Source: an uncultured Aestuariivirga sp. (GTDB lineage: Bacteria > Pseudomonadota > Alphaproteobacteria > Rhizobiales > Aestuariivirgaceae). From it: a DNA stretch of 24,000 nt. The stretch covers positions 5,499 through 29,498 of the forward strand of contig CAZICN010000008.1 in assembly GCA_964537655.1 (NCBI GenBank), written 5' to 3'. Below the pieces are notes generated by a model. That model saw only the letters and a list, made by a program, of their open reading frames with translations. It was not told the DNA's origin and did no database searches. The position numbers were made by a program, and so were the translations under genes. Below are positions 5,583 to 18,248 of the stretch, piece by piece (position 1 is the first letter of the stretch; every line of letters begins with the position of its first letter).

Positions 5583-6536
5583 TTATTGCAGCCAGGCCTT
5601 CCAGACCGCCTCGTTCTCGGCGACCCACTTCTTGGCCGCGTCCTCGGGCGTCATGCCCTCGACATCGACCATGGCGGCGGCGGCCGCGATCTGCGGATTG
5701 GTGAAATTGACCTTCTTCAGGATCGCGGTCGCCTTCGGCCATTTTTCGGCGAGCTGCTTCGAGCCGGCCTTCTTGAGATAACCCTTGGCCGGGGCGCCGC
5801 AATCATAGACGGCGTCGGGATTCATGCCCCATTTGGGATCCGACAGGCAGGCCGGCTCATAGGTCGGGAACTCGACGAACTGGCCATCGAACTTCGCCTC
5901 GATGAAGTTCGGCGTCCAGTTGAACAGCACGATCGGTTCCTTGCGGTCATAGGCGGCCTGCAGTTCCGCCCACAAGGTCGCCGCCTGGCCGACCGGCACT
6001 TCCTGGAAGTTCATCTTCAGCGCCTGGATGCGCTCGGAATAGTGTTTGCCCCAGTCGGCCGGCGGTCCGACGAACCGGCCCTTGCTGCCGGTCTCGGCGG
6101 TGGCGAGCTTGCCGGCGCAGGCATCGAGCGCCTTCCAGTCGGGCAGGCCCGGGCACATCTCGTTCATGTATTTCGGATACCACCAGTCCTCGCGCGTCAC
6201 CGCTTCATGGGCGCCGAGGTCGATGGCGCCGCCGGCGATCGCCTTCTCGAAGGATTCGGCCTGCGAGCCTTCCCAGACCTCGACCTGGAAATCCATGTCG
6301 CCGGCCGCCAGCGCCGTATATTGCAGCTGCGTGTCGGAGGATTTGTATTCGACATTATTGCCCTGCGCCTGCAGGATCTGGCCGACGACATTGGAGAGCA
6401 CGAGCTGGCTCGTCCAGTTGTTGGTCACGATCTTGATCGGATCGGCGGAATCTTCCGCCCATGCCGCGGCGCTGACGCTCATCAGCATCGCGGCGCCCGT
6501 CAGACTGGTCCTTGCAATTGTCCTGATCGATTTCAT
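5583..6536 (-). CDS. Betaine/choline-family (ProX-like) periplasmic substrate-binding protein; candidate TMAO/methylamine binder
   Basis: MKSIRTIARTSLTGAAMLMSVSAAAWA signal peptide. SD GGAGAGGA lies 5-12 nt upstream of the ATG at 6536, which I prefer over the track start at 6551. ProX-like, Trp-rich sequence (NNWTSQ, VWEGS, EDWWYP, FNWTPNF). First gene of the ABC operon. Confidence 0.85.
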   Translation of the reverse strand: MKSIRTIARTSLTGAAMLMSVSAAAWAEDSADPIKIVTNNWTSQLVLSNVVGQILQAQGNNVEYKSSDTQLQYTALAAGDMDFQVEVWEGSQAESFEKAIAGGAIDLGAHEAVTREDWWYPKYMNEMCPGLPDWKALDACAGKLATAETGSKGRFVGPPADWGKHYSERIQALKMNFQEVPVGQAATLWAELQAAYDRKEPIVLFNWTPNFIEAKFDGQFVEFPTYEPACLSDPKWGMNPDAVYDCGAPAKGYLKKAGSKQLAEKWPKATAILKKVNFTNPQIAAAAAMVDVEGMTPEDAAKKWVAENEAVWKAWLQ

Positions 6537-11523: not shown

Positions 11524-13125
11524 TCAGGCCCCGGCCCGCACCGACGCCCAGTCGAGATCGAAACGGGCGAGGTATTTGCGCAGGCGGTCGGCGTCGTTGC
11601 CGCTCGTCTTCTCCTGGCGCGATGCGGCGAACAGCCGTCGGCCGGCGGCGCTGAGCGATGCGCTCTCGCGGCAGATGGCGATCACCGTGGCGAGCTGGGC
11701 CTGGTCGAAGAGATCGATCCGCGCGATGCGCTCCGGCGGAAAAACCTCGCGCAGCAGCTCACCCGGTTCGCCGCGGCGTCCGTCCGACCACAGGCTCTTG
11801 AGCCGCGCGATTTCTTCCTCGACGGTCGTCTCGTCGATGCGGCCCTTGGGCGCCAGCGTCACCATGCGGGTGATCGAGGCGGAAAGGTCGCGGAAATTGG
11901 CACGCCACTCCGCTTCGGCCGAGGTCGCGAAGGCGGTGAAGCGGGACCGCGCTTCCTTGTTGAAGGTGATCTTGGCGCCGTCGTCCTGGGCATGGCGCTC
12001 GAGCTCGAAGTCGATATTGGGCTCGATATCTTCCGATCTGTCCTTGAGGGCGGGCAGCGCGAAGGTCCACAGGTTGAGGCGCGCCAGCAGATCGTCGCGG
12101 AACCGCCCTGACCGCACCGCGTCATGGAGATCGCGGTTGGTGCCGGCGACGAGCTGGAAGTCGCTTGCCGTCTCCTTGTCGGCGCCGACCGCGAGGAAGC
12201 GTTTCTCCTCGATGGCGCGCAGGATCATCGCCTGTTCGTCGGGCCCGAGCTCGCCGATCTCGTCGAGAAACAAGAGGCCGCCATCGGCGGATTTGAGCAG
12301 GCCCGGCCGCGCCGACTGGGCGCCGGTAAAGGCGCCCTTCACATGGCCGAACAGCGAGGACATGGCGGTATCGCCGCGCAAGGTGGCGCAGTTCACGTCG
12401 ACGAATGGTCCTTCGATCTGGTGGCGCGACTTCTTGAGTTCATAGATGCGCCGCGCCAGCTGCGATTTGCCGGCGCCTGTCGGGCCGGTCAGCAGGAAGG
12501 GCGCCTTGGAATTGATGGCCACCTGCTCGATGCGGTCGATCATGCGGTTGAAGGCGGCGCTCCGCGTCGCGATGCCGGATTTGAGGAAGGACGCGGCGTC
12601 GTGCTGCTCGGCCCGGAAGCGCGTGGCGATCCGGTCATAGCGCGACAGGTCGAGATCGATGATCCGCATCGGGCTCGTGAGATCGCCGCGCGCTTTCCGG
12701 GGCGGCGAGAGTTGCAGGAGCCTCGCCGGGATATGGCGCGTCTCGGCGAGCAGGAACCAGCAGATCTGCTCCACATGTGTCCCGGTGGTGATGTTGATGA
12801 AATAGTCTTCCTTCTCCGTATCGAAGCTGCGGCCGCGGGCGAAATCATGCAGCGCGCCATAGACTTCCTCGAAATCCCAGGGGTCCTTGAGGTTGATGAC
12901 GACCGGCGCCACCTGGGTCTCGGGCGAGACCTGGTTGATGTCCTGGGTCAGCCGCTGGAAGAGACCGGCCGAGTGATTGTCATGGATGAGTTCGAGCCGG
13001 TGGACGATAAAATCCTCCTGCTGGCACACGGCGACCGTCGGCCGCCAGCGCTCCCACCGGTTCTCGTGTTTGGCGATATCGAGTTTGGTGCCGATGAAGC
13101 CGATGACGACATTGGTCCTGCTCAT
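11524..13125 (-). CDS. rtcR: RtcR, sigma54-dependent enhancer-binding activator with N-terminal CARF-like sensor domain
   Basis: Near full-length collinearity with E. coli RtcR as recalled (WRPT..CQQE....RLEL.HD, NPWDFEEVY..LHDFARG, INITTGTHV.QICWFLLAE, IIDLDLSRY, GPTGAGKS, GAFTGA, ESFCS-less AAA+ core, C-terminal DADRLRKYLARF). ATG at 13125, with a TTG one codon upstream. The stop abuts the torT stop. Confidence 0.95.
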   Translation of the reverse strand: MSRTNVVIGFIGTKLDIAKHENRWERWRPTVAVCQQEDFIVHRLELIHDNHSAGLFQRLTQDINQVSPETQVAPVVINLKDPWDFEEVYGALHDFARGRSFDTEKEDYFINITTGTHVEQICWFLLAETRHIPARLLQLSPPRKARGDLTSPMRIIDLDLSRYDRIATRFRAEQHDAASFLKSGIATRSAAFNRMIDRIEQVAINSKAPFLLTGPTGAGKSQLARRIYELKKSRHQIEGPFVDVNCATLRGDTAMSSLFGHVKGAFTGAQSARPGLLKSADGGLLFLDEIGELGPDEQAMILRAIEEKRFLAVGADKETASDFQLVAGTNRDLHDAVRSGRFRDDLLARLNLWTFALPALKDRSEDIEPNIDFELERHAQDDGAKITFNKEARSRFTAFATSAEAEWRANFRDLSASITRMVTLAPKGRIDETTVEEEIARLKSLWSDGRRGEPGELLREVFPPERIARIDLFDQAQLATVIAICRESASLSAAGRRLFAASRQEKTSGNDADRLRKYLARFDLDWASVRAGA

Positions 13126-13266
13126 CAAGGACTTATATCAAAAGATAAAAGACAATCCAATAGTATCTATTCTAGCGGAAGAATGGAGGAAGGGCGGGCG
13201 AAGAAAGAAAAATATAAAATAGTAATATCAATTAGATATACGAATTCTGGCGGATCCTCCCACGTC

Positions 13267-13282
13267 TGGCACGCAGGCTGCA
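13267..13282 (+). promoter_or_regulatory. Sigma54 (-24/-12) promoter of the rsr operon
   Basis: TGGCACGcaggCTGCA matches TGGCACG-N4-TTGCW at 15 of 16 positions with correct GG/GC spacing. It lies 33 nt upstream of the rsr ATG, with SD AAGGGAAAG between them, and is divergent from rtcR. Confidence 0.85.
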
Positions 13283-13314: not shown

Positions 13315-14874
13315 ATGGCAAACAAATCCGTGTTTGCATCGACGATCGGAAGGCTGCTTCCGCGTGCGAATGCCTGGAATCACGAGAAGGCTCCGGCCTA
13401 TGGCCTTGTGCCGCGCGCTGCGCTGGCGCAACTGGCCGCGACCGGGACCTTCAACCGGACCTTCTATGCGGAGCCGCGGGAGCAGCTCGATCAGGTGCTG
13501 AAGCTGGCATGGAAGGTGGATTCCGCCTTCATCGCCAGGACGGCGATCTATGCGCGCGAGAAGGGGCACATGAAGGACATGCCGGCGGCTTTGCTGGCGG
13601 TCCTCGCCACGCTCGATACGGGTGATTTCGCCAAGGCGTTTCCGCGGGTGATCACGAACGGGCGCATGCTGCGCAATTTCGTGCAGGTCATCCGATCGGG
13701 TGCGGTTGGCCGCAAGTCCCTGGGCTCGCGCCCGAAGCGCATGATCCTGGGCTGGCTGGCTTCGGCGTCGGATGAGGACATTCTGCGCGCGAGCATCGGC
13801 AACGATCCCTCGCTCGCCGATATCATCCGCATGGTGCATCCCAAGCCCGAGACGAAGACGCGCGAAGCGCTTTATGGCTATGTGATCGGCCGTCCCTATG
13901 ACGCTGACGCGTTGCCGCAGATCGTGAAGGATCTCGAAGCCTTCAAGCGCGACCCGTCTTTGCCGGTTCCGGCGGTGCCGTTCCAGTTGCTGACCGCGCT
14001 GCCGCTGACGCAGAAGCAGTGGGCTTCGGTGGCCGAGACGGCGTCCTGGCAGACCTTGCGCCAGGGGCTCAACACCTTCGCGCGTCACGGCGTGTTCGGC
14101 ATTGCCGGCATGTCGGAGCGCGTGGCCGAGCGCCTCGCCGACGCGAAGGCGATCGCCCGCGCCAAGGTTTTTCCCTATCAGCTGATGGCGGCCTATGCCG
14201 CCTCGGCCGGGGAAGTGCCGAAGCCGGTGCGCAACGCCTTGCAGGATGCGATGGAAATCGCCATTGGCAATGTGCCGGAGCTCGATCAGCGGATCGTCGT
14301 CTGCCCGGATGTTTCGGGTTCGATGTCGTCCCCGGTGACGGGTCACCGCAAGGGTGCGTCGAGCGCGGTGCGCTGCATCGATGTCGCGGCTTTGGTGGCC
14401 GCGTCCTTCCTGCGCCGCAACGCGAAGGTCGAGGTGCTGCCTTTCGAGCAGGATGTGGTCGATATCGACCTCAACCCGCGAGATACGGTGCTGACCAACG
14501 CGGCCAAGCTCGCCAGGATCGGCGGTGGCGGAACCAACTGCTCGGCGCCGCTGGCGCGACTGGCGCGTGAGAAGGCGAAGGTCGACCTCGTCATCTTCGT
14601 TTCCGATAACGAATCCTGGGTGGATGCATCCAAGGGTGGCGCGACCGGAACGACGACGATGAAGGCCTGGGAGAGGGTGAAGCGGGTAAATCCTGAAGCC
14701 AAGCTCGTTTGCATCGACATCCAGCCCTACATAACGACGCAGGCGGTCGAGCGCGAGGACATCCTGAATGTCGGAGGTTTCTCCGATACGGTGTTCGAGA
14801 TGATCGCCGCCTTCGCCGAGAACCGGCTGGGGGCGGATCACTGGATCGGCGAGATCGAGAAGATCGCGCTGTAA
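13315..14874 (+). CDS. rsr: Ro60 ortholog Rsr (TROVE domain plus vWA/MIDAS domain)
   Basis: 519 aa starting MANKSVFASTIGRLLP... TROVE-like N-terminal two thirds (TFYAEPREQLDQVL...ARTAIYAREKGHMKDMPA) and a C-terminal vWA with MIDAS DVSGSM. The 916-aa track ORF 12124..14874 is this gene plus an antisense-to-rtcR read-through. Confidence 0.9.
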   Translation: MANKSVFASTIGRLLPRANAWNHEKAPAYGLVPRAALAQLAATGTFNRTFYAEPREQLDQVLKLAWKVDSAFIARTAIYAREKGHMKDMPAALLAVLATLDTGDFAKAFPRVITNGRMLRNFVQVIRSGAVGRKSLGSRPKRMILGWLASASDEDILRASIGNDPSLADIIRMVHPKPETKTREALYGYVIGRPYDADALPQIVKDLEAFKRDPSLPVPAVPFQLLTALPLTQKQWASVAETASWQTLRQGLNTFARHGVFGIAGMSERVAERLADAKAIARAKVFPYQLMAAYAASAGEVPKPVRNALQDAMEIAIGNVPELDQRIVVCPDVSGSMSSPVTGHRKGASSAVRCIDVAALVAASFLRRNAKVEVLPFEQDVVDIDLNPRDTVLTNAAKLARIGGGGTNCSAPLARLAREKAKVDLVIFVSDNESWVDASKGGATGTTTMKAWERVKRVNPEAKLVCIDIQPYITTQAVEREDILNVGGFSDTVFEMIAAFAENRLGADHWIGEIEKIAL

Positions 14875-14881
14875 CGATAAG

Positions 14882-14908
14882 GGACCACGGGGCGGCGTCT
14901 CGTGGTCC
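14882..14908 (+). other. Stem-loop immediately after the rsr stop
   Basis: GGACCACG (14882-14889) pairs with CGTGGTCC (14901-14908), with an 11-nt loop. Its function is unknown; it could be a processing or stability element, or the 5' boundary of the ncRNA array. Confidence 0.4.
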
Positions 14909-14917
14909 AGCGAAATG

Positions 14918-14985
14918 GGTGAATGCGGACAGGAATACAGTGGAACCGAGGGTTCAAATCCCCATTCTTGTCCTCCTTTGTCACC
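14918..14985 (+). ncRNA. Y-RNA-like module A (minimal: two stacked stems plus a T-loop-like hairpin)
   Basis: Outer stem GGTGA (14918-14922):TCACC (14981-14985). A 10-bp stem GGACAGGAAT (14927-14936):ATTCTTGTCC (14964-14973) with one G.T pair. Internal GGGTTCAAATCCC. It shares the GAATGC, AATACAG, T-loop and TTCTTGTC blocks with modules B and C in the same order. Confidence 0.45.
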
Positions 14986-14986
14986 A

Positions 14987-15123
14987 CCGCGGGGCGAATG
15001 CCTGCGGGACTACAGGGTAGAGCGCCTGCCGGTATGGCAGGAGGTCGGGGGTTCGTATCCTCCCGCCGGTGAAAGCCGGGCGTAGCTCAGGAAACGTCTC
15101 GCAACCATCTTGTCGCCTGGCGG
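14987..15123 (+). ncRNA. Y-RNA-like module B with tRNA-like domain (anticodon-like arm, T arm, loop-closed acceptor, split D stem)
   Basis: Terminal stem 14987-14997:15113-15123 (11 positions, one G.G mismatch, one G.T pair). Second stem 15003-15008:15098-15103. GGTAGAGCG-CCTGC-CGGTATG-GCAGG-AGGTC-GGGGG-TTCGTAT-CCTCC has exact tRNA spacing. Closed hairpin CGCCGG-tgaaag-CCGGGCG, then TAGCTCAGG. Confidence 0.6.
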
Positions 15124-15139: not shown

Positions 15140-15279
15140 AGGCCCTTACGAATGCCGATGGAACTACAGATCGTTAATCTCCGTGTCGCGGGTTCGAATC
15201 CCGCCAGGTCCCCCAATATGGACCTGTAGCTCAGGTGGATAGAGCAGGCTGTTTCATCACCTTCTTGTCGTAAGGACCT
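15140..15279 (+). ncRNA. YrlA-like Y RNA (module C): Ro-type stem plus circularly permuted tRNA-like domain
   Basis: Terminal stem AGGCCCTTACGA (15140-15151):TCGTAAGGACCT (15268-15279) with one C.A mismatch. Second stem 15157-15162:15253-15258 plus 15166-15169:15249-15252. Canonical T arm GCGGG-TTCGAAT-CCCGC (15188-15204). Acceptor CAGGTCC (15205-15211) / GGACCTG (15220-15226) closed by CCCAATAT. TA, then D arm GCTC-AGGTGGATA-GAGC (15229-15245). It lies directly downstream of rsr, as the Y RNAs do in Salmonella. Confidence 0.7.
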
Positions 15280-15298: not shown

Positions 15299-15844
15299 AT
15301 GGAAAAGAACATCACTCGGCTCAGCAAGTTTCTGAGCTACATTCTGCGCCACGCACCGGATGAGATCGGTCTCGTATTGAGCGAGGGCGGCTGGGTCTCG
15401 GCCAGCGAGCTCATCGCCAAAGCGGGCGCGCATGGATATCAGCTCACGCCGGAAATCCTCCGCGAAATCGTGGCGAGCAATGACAAAAAGCGCTTCACCT
15501 TGTCGCCGGATGGGGCGCGGATCAGGGCGGCGCAAGGTCATTCAGTGGCCGTCAGTCTCGATCTGGCACCGGTCACGCCACCGAGCCAGCTTTATCATGG
15601 CACGGCGGCGAAGGTGCTGGACAAGATCCTGGCGGAAGGCCTCACGCCGCAAACACGCCAGCATGTCCACCTCTCGCTCGATAGGGAGACGGCGCGCAAG
15701 GTGGGCATGCGGCACGGCAAGCCGGTCATTCTCCTCGTCGCGGCGGATCGGATGCATCATGATGGCCTGCATTTCTACAAGGCCGACAATGGCGTCTGGC
15801 TGACCAGCCATGTGGCGCCGCATTATTTGACTGTGAAGGATTGA
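15299..15844 (+). CDS. kptA: RNA 2'-phosphotransferase (Tpt1/KptA family, NAD-dependent)
   Basis: 181 aa. SKFLSYILRHAPDEIGLVLSEGGW...DKKRF...IRAAQGHS...LYHGT...HVHLS...A.KVG.RHG.PVIL...NGVWLT are collinear with E. coli KptA as recalled, including the R-H-R-R catalytic-type motifs (LRH, RAxQGHS, HVHLS). Confidence 0.9.
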   Translation: MEKNITRLSKFLSYILRHAPDEIGLVLSEGGWVSASELIAKAGAHGYQLTPEILREIVASNDKKRFTLSPDGARIRAAQGHSVAVSLDLAPVTPPSQLYHGTAAKVLDKILAEGLTPQTRQHVHLSLDRETARKVGMRHGKPVILLVAADRMHHDGLHFYKADNGVWLTSHVAPHYLTVKD

Positions 15845-15849
15845 AGACC

Positions 15850-17085
<1,236 letters not shown>

Positions 17086-17228: not shown

Positions 17229-18248
17229 ATGTTGACCATCGATGGCAGTCAGGGCGAGGGCGGCGGGCAGATCCTGCGCTCGGCTCTGACGCTTTCCTTG
17301 CTGACGGGCGAACCGTTCCGGATCGAGAACATCCGGGCCGGCCGCGCCAAGCCGGGCCTGCTGCGCCAGCATCTGGCGGCAGTGAAGGCGGCCGTGCAGA
17401 TTTCCGGCGGCAAGGCCCAGGGTGTCGAGCTCGGCTCGACCGCGATTACCTTCGAGCCGGGCGAGGTGCGGGCGGGCGACTATGCCTTTGCCATTGGCTC
17501 GGCGGGAGCCGCTTCGCTCGTCTTTCAGACTGTGTTCCTGCCGCTGGCGCGGCAGACGGCGGCCTCGCGTGTCACCATCGAAGGCGGCACGCACAATTTC
17601 GCAGCACCGCCCTTCGAGTTTCTCGACCGCGCCTTTCTTCCCGCGGTGGGCCGGATGGGCTTCGATGCGAAGCTCACTTTGCATCGGCATGGCTTCTATC
17701 CGGCGGGCGGCGGCAAGCTCGAGGCCGGGATCGGCCCGGTGCGCGCCGCGCCTGCGCGTTTTGCGCTCGAGGATCGCGGTGCGCTGCTGTCACGCACCGG
17801 CGAGGCGATGTTCGCCAATCTGGCCTTCGATATCGCCCAGCGCGAAGCCGGCAAGCTTCGGGAGCTTCTCCGGCTCGCCGACGGCGATGTGAAGATCAGG
17901 GAGGTCAAGGCCTCGGGGCCGGGCAATCTGCTGTGGATCGAGATCCGCCATGAACATGTCACCGATGTCTTCACCGCGCATGGCGAGCTCGGCGTCTCGG
18001 CCGAGCAGGTCGCGGGCAAGGTGGCGAAGCAGGTCGAGAAATATATCGAGAGCGAGGTCGCCATTGGCGCGCATCTCGCCGATCAGCTCTTGCTGCCCCT
18101 GGCGCTGGCGGGCGGTGGCCGCTTCACCACCACGAGGCCGACGCCGCATACCCACAGCAATATTGCGGTCATCGAGAAGTTCCTGCCCGTCGAGATCACG
18201 ATCGCCGAGACCGGACGCGGCGGGCGTCTGATCGAGGTGTCGCTGTAG
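17229..18248 (+). CDS. rtcA: RNA 3'-terminal phosphate cyclase RtcA
   Basis: LTIDGSQGEGGGQILRSALTLSLLTGEPFRIENIRAGRAKPGLLRQHL, AIGSAG, RHGFYPAGGG, ADQLLLPLALAG, TNIAVIEKFLPV are collinear with E. coli RtcA as recalled. Confidence 0.95.
   Translation: MLTIDGSQGEGGGQILRSALTLSLLTGEPFRIENIRAGRAKPGLLRQHLAAVKAAVQISGGKAQGVELGSTAITFEPGEVRAGDYAFAIGSAGAASLVFQTVFLPLARQTAASRVTIEGGTHNFAAPPFEFLDRAFLPAVGRMGFDAKLTLHRHGFYPAGGGKLEAGIGPVRAAPARFALEDRGALLSRTGEAMFANLAFDIAQREAGKLRELLRLADGDVKIREVKASGPGNLLWIEIRHEHVTDVFTAHGELGVSAEQVAGKVAKQVEKYIESEVAIGAHLADQLLLPLALAGGGRFTTTRPTPHTHSNIAVIEKFLPVEITIAETGRGGRLIEVSL

Follow-up and report, generated by a model that had tools for sequence, protein, structure and literature searches.

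The RNA-repair locus described here raises the question of whether one fold resembling transfer RNA (tRNA) can be opened at two different places in neighbouring Y RNAs. The locus lies in a stretch of 24,000 nucleotides (nt) from an uncultured Aestuariivirga sp. (the window, meaning the whole stretch that was analysed), and its order is rtcR, rsr (the Ro60 gene), three Y-RNA modules and kptA-rtcB-rtcA. The modules, named A, B and C in an original prediction made from the window's letters, correspond to three copies of a Ro-binding cassette (GAAUGC, 6-8 nt, A-C/A-U-A-C/U) that start at 14921, 14996 and 15150. The subject of the present analysis is module B, the middle one, at 14987-15123 on the plus strand. 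According to the original prediction, the two strands of its D stem lie on opposite sides of the molecule (GAGC at 15020-15023, GCUC at 15085-15088), and the Ro-type stems emerge from an opened D loop. Comparison with related loci bears this out, and module B quite probably represents a widespread bacterial subclass of Y RNAs, with the Ro cassette of YrlA and a tRNA-like head re-permuted via the D loop. Module C (15143-15279), at 66 bits against the Rfam YrlA model (slightly below the 69-bit gathering cut-off), is recognizable as a classical YrlA. Since the D arm of module B is split, the two adjacent paralogs would be two different circular permutations of the tRNA fold, as had also been proposed.

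Pairing of the distant D-stem strands

The two D-stem strands of module B are about 60 nt apart, and a 4-nt complement at such a distance means little by itself; it is the tRNA-consensus flanks together with the comparative data that place the match far beyond chance. The minimum free energy (MFE) fold of the single module B sequence does not recover the D stem, and so the question was settled by comparison of related sequences, with thermodynamics alone not counted as evidence.

Among plasmids, blastn recovered modules of the same architecture from Rhizobium leguminosarum, Rhizobium sp. BT04 and one Novosphingobium plasmid. Genome and metagenome contigs were searched with a pattern that fixed the Ro cassette, the T-loop core and the flanks of the 5' D strand (GUA-NNNN-AR), and that left unspecified the bases of the 5' D strand (N) and the entire 3' half of the D arm. 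This pattern matched once in the window, compared with 0 matches in 100 shuffles, and it matched 83 loci in genome contigs (species-level genomes) and 93 loci in metagenome contigs. Viral contigs scanned with the pattern gave 0 matches and hence no sign of a phage origin. Rsr, RtcB, RtcA and/or RtcR adjoin the match in all 86 plasmid and genome loci (L001-L086) and in 80 of the 93 metagenome loci, the rest being mostly short contigs or false positives. Inspection by eye removed loci with a classical YrlA in shifted register (L005, L046, L060 and L179) and spurious pattern matches (L045, L094, L104, L106, L132, L144, L157, L167 and L176), and 180 unique modules were left. The named hosts are mostly Alphaproteobacteria (Rhizobiaceae, Sphingomonadales, Rhodobacterales, Pleomorphomonas, Methylopila, Ancylobacter, Nitrospirillum and Gluconacetobacter); others are the betaproteobacterium Andreprevotia and metagenome-assembled genomes (MAGs) labelled Planctomycetota and Acidobacteriota. 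The closest relative of the window is Taklimakanibacter lacteus (L012), with an Rsr that is 92.7% identical.

The hairpin parser misread about 10 modules with imperfect stems at the anticodon position, and D-stem columns were therefore taken from sequence-only MAFFT alignments. In these, the distant strands of the 180 unique modules are paired in 720 of 720 cells (716 Watson-Crick and 4 G-U), so that complementarity of the GCUC...GAGC type is kept in every homologue. The sequence of the helix is GCUC/GAGC (5' strand/3' strand) in 145 modules. Another 28 have GCUU/AAGC, a double change at 13:22; two have GCAU/AUGC, with double changes at 12:23 and 13:22; and one has ACUC/GAGU, a double change at 10:25. 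The remaining four are wobble variants with a one-sided change. The covariation analysis by which the original prediction proposed to check the long-range helix has thus found compensatory double changes at 10:25, 12:23 and 13:22.

Several controls point the same way. When the 3' strands were permuted among the sequences, none of 5000 permutations reached the observed D-stem pairing. In a 46-sequence alignment, the D stem is 99.5% paired with two-sided changes at three of its four pairs. The sole cell of that alignment scored as 'other' is the misaligned 3' strand of L111, for which a local-pair alignment gives ACUC/GAGU. Ten pairs taken together (D stem, 15:48 and T stem) were not matched by any of 500 shuffles of the same alignment, and pairing drops to 33-47% when the partner is slid by 1-3 columns. 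RNAalifold, run on a 71-sequence alignment of the short-linker subtype (B1), predicts de novo the long-range D stem, the Ro helices and both the T stem and the stem at the anticodon position. The B1-only alignment contains no D-stem double changes and only three wobble variants; D-stem covariation appears only once the long-linker subtype (B2) and the metagenome matches are added. Overall, the comparison gives good support to a GAGC/GCUC pairing that closes a four-way junction with the anticodon-position hairpin, the 5-nt variable loop, the T arm and the loop-closed acceptor stem. The pairing in 180 modules likewise supports the predicted emergence of the Ro-type stems from an opened D loop, with the point of entry between R15 and G18.

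The Ro cassette and the tRNA-like head

The outer part of module B is a Ro cassette that aligns end to end with the Rfam YrlA model. The 5' strand of its basal Ro-binding helix occupies 14987-15000 and includes, at 14993-15000 and thus near the 5' end of the module, the GNCGAAN(0-1)G motif as defined by Chen et al. 2014 (PMC4201824), here GGCGAAUG. The constancy of this motif among the homologues is uninformative, because CGAATGCC was demanded by the search pattern. The 3' strand of the helix, preceded by an internal loop, lies at 15104-15123 (..CUUGUCGCCUGGCGG) and was placed by pairing and covariation with RNAalifold; the YrlA Rfam model places CUUGUCGCC on its 3' consensus. In the basal helix (alignment columns 4-9 with 149-154), 99.3% of cells are paired and 3 pairs covary. 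The upper Ro-module helix, P2, pairs UGCGGGAC (15003-15010) with GUCUCGCA (15096-15103); its 8 pairs are 98.6% paired in 71 sequences, with double changes at 5 of them. A UACA linker (15011-15014), part of an ACUACA box, leads from P2 to the 3' part of the D loop. The linker is invariant in the B1-only alignment, the box being one that the search pattern demanded, and a CUAC box also precedes the tRNA-like head in classical YrlA.

The head begins with the 3' part of the opened D loop, (G)G18 G19 U20 A21 (GGGUA, 15015-15019), followed by the D-stem 3' strand at tRNA positions 22-25 and by the position-26 purine, which is G at 15024 and G or A in all modules. Next come the hairpin at the anticodon-arm position (CCUGC-CGGUAUG-GCAGG, 15025-15041), a 5-nt variable loop (AGGUC, 15042-15046) and the T arm (GGGGG-UUCGUAU-CCUCC, 15047-15063). 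The original reading of 15016-15063 as GGTA-GAGC-G-CCTGC-CGGTATG-GCAGG-AGGTC-GGGGG-TTCGTAT-CCTCC is therefore correct letter for letter. The loop-closed acceptor-like stem that follows (15064-15082) has 7 base pairs (bp), one bulged G and a GAAA tetraloop in the MFE fold. The dinucleotide U8 A9 (15083-15084) then leads into the D-stem 5' strand, tRNA positions 10-13, and the 5' part of the opened D loop (15089-15095), consisting of A14 G15 (15089-15090) and the A-rich linker GAAAC, returns to the Ro module. All 180 modules have the same order of elements: D 3' strand, purine 26, hairpin, variable loop, T arm, closed acceptor hairpin, UA, D 5' strand and A-R.

One part of the original prediction did not survive the comparison. 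Module B had been said to keep a full anticodon-like arm at exact tRNA spacing. A hairpin is indeed always present at this position, and all 5 of its basal pairs covary, but its size is unlike that of a tRNA anticodon arm: across the family it is 12-38 nt long, and only 21 of 178 modules have the 17 nt found in the window. Because hairpin length and loop vary in this way, the exact tRNA spacing is a coincidence of the window sequence. The loops are mostly GNRA tetraloops (for example GCAA, GAAA and GCGA); the hairpin of L012, for instance, has 7 bp and a GCAA loop. Even in module B, the 5-bp stem with a 7-nt loop is one option among several, since the arm can also be folded with 6-7 bp and a loop of 3-5 nt, and the MFE fold draws it with 6 bp and a 5-nt loop. 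The further claim that the loop CGGUAUG lacks U33 and a purine at position 37, and so does not decode, is correct for the window; neither loop size nor loop sequence is conserved in the family, and a decoding role is excluded by the tetraloop that occupies the anticodon position. The arm is best seen as a capped helix continuing the axis of the D stem, and not as a degenerate anticodon arm.

Beyond the D stem itself, the tRNA core elements found in module B are U8, A14, R15:Y48, G18G19 and the T arm. The Levitt pair between positions 15 and 48 (G15090 and C15046 in module B) is G:C in 134, A:U in 40 and other in 4 of the 178 parsed modules, and in the 46-sequence alignment (read as 48:15) it is CG in 23, UA in 19 and other in 4. 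The search pattern restricted position 15 to a purine and left position 48 free, and the choice of G or A at 15 covaries with 48. The A:U switch is not limited to B2, as it also occurs in the short-linker modules L073 and L077 (variable loop GGUUU). G18-G19, followed by 1-3 nt and then an A directly 5' of the D-stem strand, is conserved in B1 modules and was not required by the pattern. The constancy of U8, A14, R15 and UA is not independent evidence, because they were required (GTA in the genome search, TA in the metagenome search). The UA is found after the acceptor hairpin in every module retrieved, and the same UA joins the acceptor stem and D arm in YrlA. The linker after A14-R15 is A-rich and 3-8 nt long across the modules.

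The T stem is 98.6% paired, with covariation at 4 of 5 pairs. The stem-loop as a whole is tRNA-like, as in YrlA, except that the T loop of module B (UUCGUAU, 15052-15058) has U in place of A at position 58. This U58 is common to L012 and L099, while L047 has C58. Many sphingomonad and Novosphingobium copies carry C55 (T loop UCCGAAU), so that no pseudouridine is possible at position 55 there. The acceptor-like hairpin between the T and D elements is present in all homologues; it is 9-29 nt long and often GNRA-closed, as judged by eye. The retention of U8, A14, the G15:C48 Levitt pair and G18-G19 implies that the head most likely folds as a tRNA-like L.

Competing explanations and a proposed mechanism

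The D-stem halves might not pair with each other at all. In that case the head would not be tRNA-like, and either GCUC would pair with GGGU (15015-15018) or a local CUAC-AGG-GUAG hairpin (15010-15020), which the original prediction had named as a competitor, would form. The local hairpin sequence is present, GGGU/GCUC is the pairing used by the single-sequence MFE fold, and CUAC/GUAG appears 89.8% 'paired' by column in the B1 alignment, since all of its bases are conserved. However, neither alternative shows covariation, and no more than 36 of 114 modules could form the full 4-bp CUAC/GUAG helix, which in many of them would leave a loop of only 2 nt; this helix is rejected as a conserved pairing. 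A change of G22 to A is compensated in the distant GCUC strand (which becomes GCUU) and not in the invariant CUAC, the outer pair of GGGU/GCUC is broken in 31 of 64 sequences, and RNAalifold chooses the long-range D stem over the local alternatives. All of this makes purely local pairing highly improbable. The same compensatory changes bear on the idea that GAGC and GCUC are conserved merely as sequence motifs, for example as protein-recognition sites from a tRNA or YrlA ancestor, with their complementarity a leftover. Such motifs would account for the near-invariance of the D-stem sequence, and Chen et al. (PMC4201824) found that the D- and T-stem sequences of YrlA are conserved beyond structural need. 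Yet in 31 sequences a change in one D strand is matched in the other, with double changes at three pairs and no unpaired cell; the permutation and slid-partner controls give far lower pairing; and the Levitt pair, which forms only in a folded L, covaries too. Leftover complementarity is very unlikely in the light of these results.

A tRNA gene in permuted or disrupted form, or a tRNA pseudogene in decay, might also conceivably be what sits within the Y-RNA stem of module B, which would then either yield a decoding tRNA or have no function. There is precedent in the permuted tRNA genes of Cyanidioschyzon merolae with a D-loop junction at position 20/21 (PMC3978253), and genuine tRNA genes do occur inside some of the arrays (L081 and L111). 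Against this, neither ARAGORN nor the Rfam tRNA model recognizes module B, a tetraloop closes its acceptor stem and a CCA end is lacking, and the loop at the anticodon position is of variable size, usually GNRA, and has neither U33 nor R37. The conservation of the whole architecture, Ro cassette included, with covariation in 180 sequences from several phyla argues against a pseudogene in particular. An origin of this kind is extremely improbable.

The preferred interpretation of module B, as a Y RNA whose head is opened at the D loop, has its own weak points. Single-sequence thermodynamics favours GCUC with GGGU and not with GAGC. Independent compensatory events are few (roughly 3-4 double changes and 4 wobble changes), and the D-stem variation is concentrated in few lineages, mostly of the B2 subtype. 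U58 replaces the near-universal A58 of the T loop, which would weaken the canonical T-loop/D-loop interaction and may weaken the elbow in this particular clade. The phylum-level spread leans partly on MAG binning: the modules of a Pirellulales MAG (L004) and a Prosthecochloris MAG (L078) are near-identical to sphingomonad ones (for example L078 to L020 and L065), which suggests mis-binning or recent transfer and calls for caution about that spread. The three-dimensional feasibility of a helix that leaves the D loop at positions 16-17 is argued from general tRNA knowledge, these positions being length-variable and solvent-exposed in tRNAs. Finally, for every member the case is built from sequence comparison, and the classification of module B as a Y RNA is inferred from its conserved cassette and its adjacency to rsr.

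The Ro cassette of module B (basal helix with GNCGAAUG, upper helix and UACA box) is the same as that of classical YrlA, with the head inserted in another register. On the 5' side the UACA linker runs into G18-G19, while A14-R15 and the A-rich linker lead back to the upper helix, which puts the break at D-loop positions 16-17. The head would then be a full L with both arms, closed at its acceptor end and capped at its 'anticodon' end. Module B would be co-transcribed with rsr-kptA-rtcB-rtcA from an RtcR/sigma-54 promoter; by analogy with the biology of YrlA and Yrn1, it would then be cut from the array, and its 5' GNCGAAUG helix would bind Rsr. As has been suggested for YrlA, the tRNA-like head would dock effectors and/or resist nucleases. 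Ro60 would sit close to the elbow, not at the anticodon end as in YrlA, and the head would thereby be presented in a different orientation from that of module C.

These points matter because, in the current view of bacterial Y RNAs, it is the tRNA-like module that tethers Ro60 to effectors. It appears that the tRNA shape itself, rather than one connectivity, is maintained, and the split-D modules (those with the D arm divided by the Ro module) would be a natural example of a tRNA fold that tolerates insertion of a helix at D-loop positions 16-17. Ro60 mounted at the elbow in one RNA and at the anticodon end in another would provide a natural geometric contrast, usable to map what the head binds. 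On a practical level, many of the Y RNAs of Alphaproteobacteria and other phyla, a large share of the total, are overlooked by the Rfam YrlA model and tRNA finders.

The locus, its arrays and related RNAs

The divergent rtcR gene lies at 11524-13128 on the minus strand (Pfam RtcR), and a sigma-54-type box, TGGCACGCAGGCTGCA, is found between it and rsr at 13267-13282, 33 nt upstream of the rsr start. The rsr gene (13315-14874; Pfam vWA_Ro60 and TROVE) is separated by a 420-nt non-coding region from kptA (15299-15844; Pfam KptA), which is followed by rtcB (15841-17085; Pfam RtcB) and rtcA (17229-18248; Pfam RtcA). Module B thus begins at 14987, shortly after the end of rsr at 14874 and on the same strand, a position well within the distance of about 4 kb from a Ro60 (TROVE) gene that is used to recognize YrlA; related loci have a like arrangement. 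A search of the rsr-kptA interval for a sigma-70-like promoter or an intrinsic terminator found neither, and the non-coding region is therefore most simply part of the operon transcript. Over the whole window, Rfam reports nothing at the gathering threshold and ARAGORN reports 0 tRNA genes. YrlA-like Ro stems are visible only in a relaxed Rfam scan, in which module B scores 23.7 bits against YrlA (cut-off 69) via the outer Ro stems only, with its head unaligned.

Other features of the window and its relatives can be mentioned here. Module A (14917-14985) consists only of a variant Ro cassette (GUGAAUGC...AAUACA) and a T-arm-like hairpin (GGGG-UUCAAAU-CCCC); it has no D or acceptor elements and is reminiscent of the smaller YrlB-type RNAs. 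A strong GC-rich 12-bp hairpin, GGGACCACGGGGCGGCGUCUCGUGGUCC, occupies 14882-14908, starting 8 nt past the rsr stop, and no U-run follows it. Lying where the array begins, this hairpin could act in processing or stability. The placement of kptA/Tpt1 (RNA 2'-phosphotransferase) between the Y-RNA array and rtcB is seen only in the window, L012 and L081, the other loci being without it. The Rhizobium loci also encode a divergent RtcB, about 24% identical to that of the window.

Throughout the plasmid and genome loci, the rsr-rtcB intergenic regions contain arrays of 2-7 Ro-cassette modules, with a median of 4 (for example L024 5457-6345 and L078 6937-7631), and a covariance model gave 379 matches in 87 sources. 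Classical YrlA is found in the arrays together with one or two split-D modules, with modules that have a T arm only and with others that lack a tRNA-like head (for example L001 2960-3065). The B2 subtype of split-D modules occurs mostly in Sphingomonadales (L003 2329-2487, L021 7477-7620, L064 5420-5564 and about 35 others), often with a B1 copy next to it in the same array. It is distinguished by a 20-40 nt insert between UACA and the D 3' strand with an extra short helix (for example GGUCC/GGACC), a 4-nt variable loop AGAU, an A15:U48 pair and, usually, the GCUU/AAGC stem. Some arrays are interspersed with tRNA genes. L081 has genes for tRNA Pro, Asn and Gln inside the array (2331-2639), and in L111 (287-581, minus strand) tRNA-Gly genes immediately flank a split-D module on either side, so that its ends could be set by tRNA processing enzymes. 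In L016, the split-D module lies upstream of rsr, its start 12 nt past a sigma-54 box, and is followed by a tRNA-like gene with a 2-nt 'anticodon' (5674-5745).

A broader proposal can be put forward only tentatively and is, on balance, doubtful. It holds that rsr-rtcB loci encode modular arrays of Y RNAs in which one Ro cassette is combined with several tRNA permutations (YrlA, split-D and T-arm-only), that Ro60 is mounted on them in various ways, and that the split-D RNAs are a distinct functional species, perhaps derived from tandem tRNAs. If this were true, Ro60 would be mounted at either the anticodon end or the elbow of a tRNA-shaped scaffold. Being alone in having both arms of the L complete, the split-D class might, for example, show a whole-tRNA mimic to the tRNA-repair enzymes of the operon or to other tRNA-binding factors, and its origin may lie in tandem tRNA genes like those still inside some arrays.

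No family in Rfam 15 covers the split-D modules, and none of those in 10 related loci reached any gathering score. Within Rfam 15 and the open-access literature, no Y RNA was found in which the D arm is split by the Ro module. Transfer-messenger RNA (tmRNA), including the two-piece permuted alphaproteobacterial form (RF04321), resembles module B in that it mimics tRNA and carries a T arm and D-loop elements on a long helix, and permuted gene order also occurs there. However, the CCA end of tmRNA can be aminoacylated and a D stem is missing, and the sole tmRNA likeness in the modules is a T-arm-level match of module C (21.7 bits, cut-off 47). The type I permuted tRNA genes of C. merolae (junction 20/21; Soma 2014, PMC3978253) also place the 3' part first and break in the D loop, but they pass through a circular intermediate and bulge-helix-bulge (BHB) motifs to become normal decoding, CCA-ended tRNAs. 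In module B, by contrast, the acceptor stem is closed and a Ro-binding stem fills the break, and in the family a tetraloop replaces the anticodon loop. Set beside a tRNA proper, module B lacks recognition by gene finders and models, free acceptor ends, and a 7-nt anticodon loop with U33 and R37.

Among Y RNAs, the Ro-bound Yrn1 of Deinococcus radiodurans, as modelled by Chen et al., shares with module B a T arm and an anticodon-position hairpin (5-bp stem, 6-nt loop). As described, it is set apart by its normal 5'-D-anticodon-T-3' order, by D-loop features that are only partial, and by the lack of a full D arm and of a variable arm. The closest parallel is YrlA (Rfam RF02553; Chen et al. 2014, PMC4201824; structure 6CU1, Wang et al. 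2018), which has been likened to a circularly permuted tRNA that has a closed acceptor stem, its ends at the anticodon stem and no anticodon loop (Chen et al. 2014, PMC4201824; Wang et al. 2018). Covariation of the 15:48 Levitt pair was used as evidence for its tRNA fold (Chen et al. 2014, PMC4201824). Like YrlA, module B lies just 3' of rsr on the same strand of an rtcR-rsr-rtcBA locus. It has the same Ro cassette (GNCGAAUG helix, upper helix and CUAC box), and its head has the T arm, loop-closed acceptor stem, UA linker, GCUC/GAGC D-stem sequence and covarying 15:48 pair of the YrlA head. The D arm of YrlA, however, is a local hairpin, whereas that of module B is split by the Ro module, so that only UA-GCUC-AG follows the acceptor hairpin, the GAGC strand being 62 nt upstream, and there is no contiguous D stem-loop. 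Nor is the junction at the anticodon stem: the Ro module of YrlA continues from the anticodon-stem position, which has no hairpin, while that of module B joins via the D loop and leaves a capped hairpin at the anticodon-arm position. Together with an Rfam score far short of 69 bits, these differences suggest that the split-D modules are an apparently undescribed, second circular permutation of the YrlA-type Y RNA.

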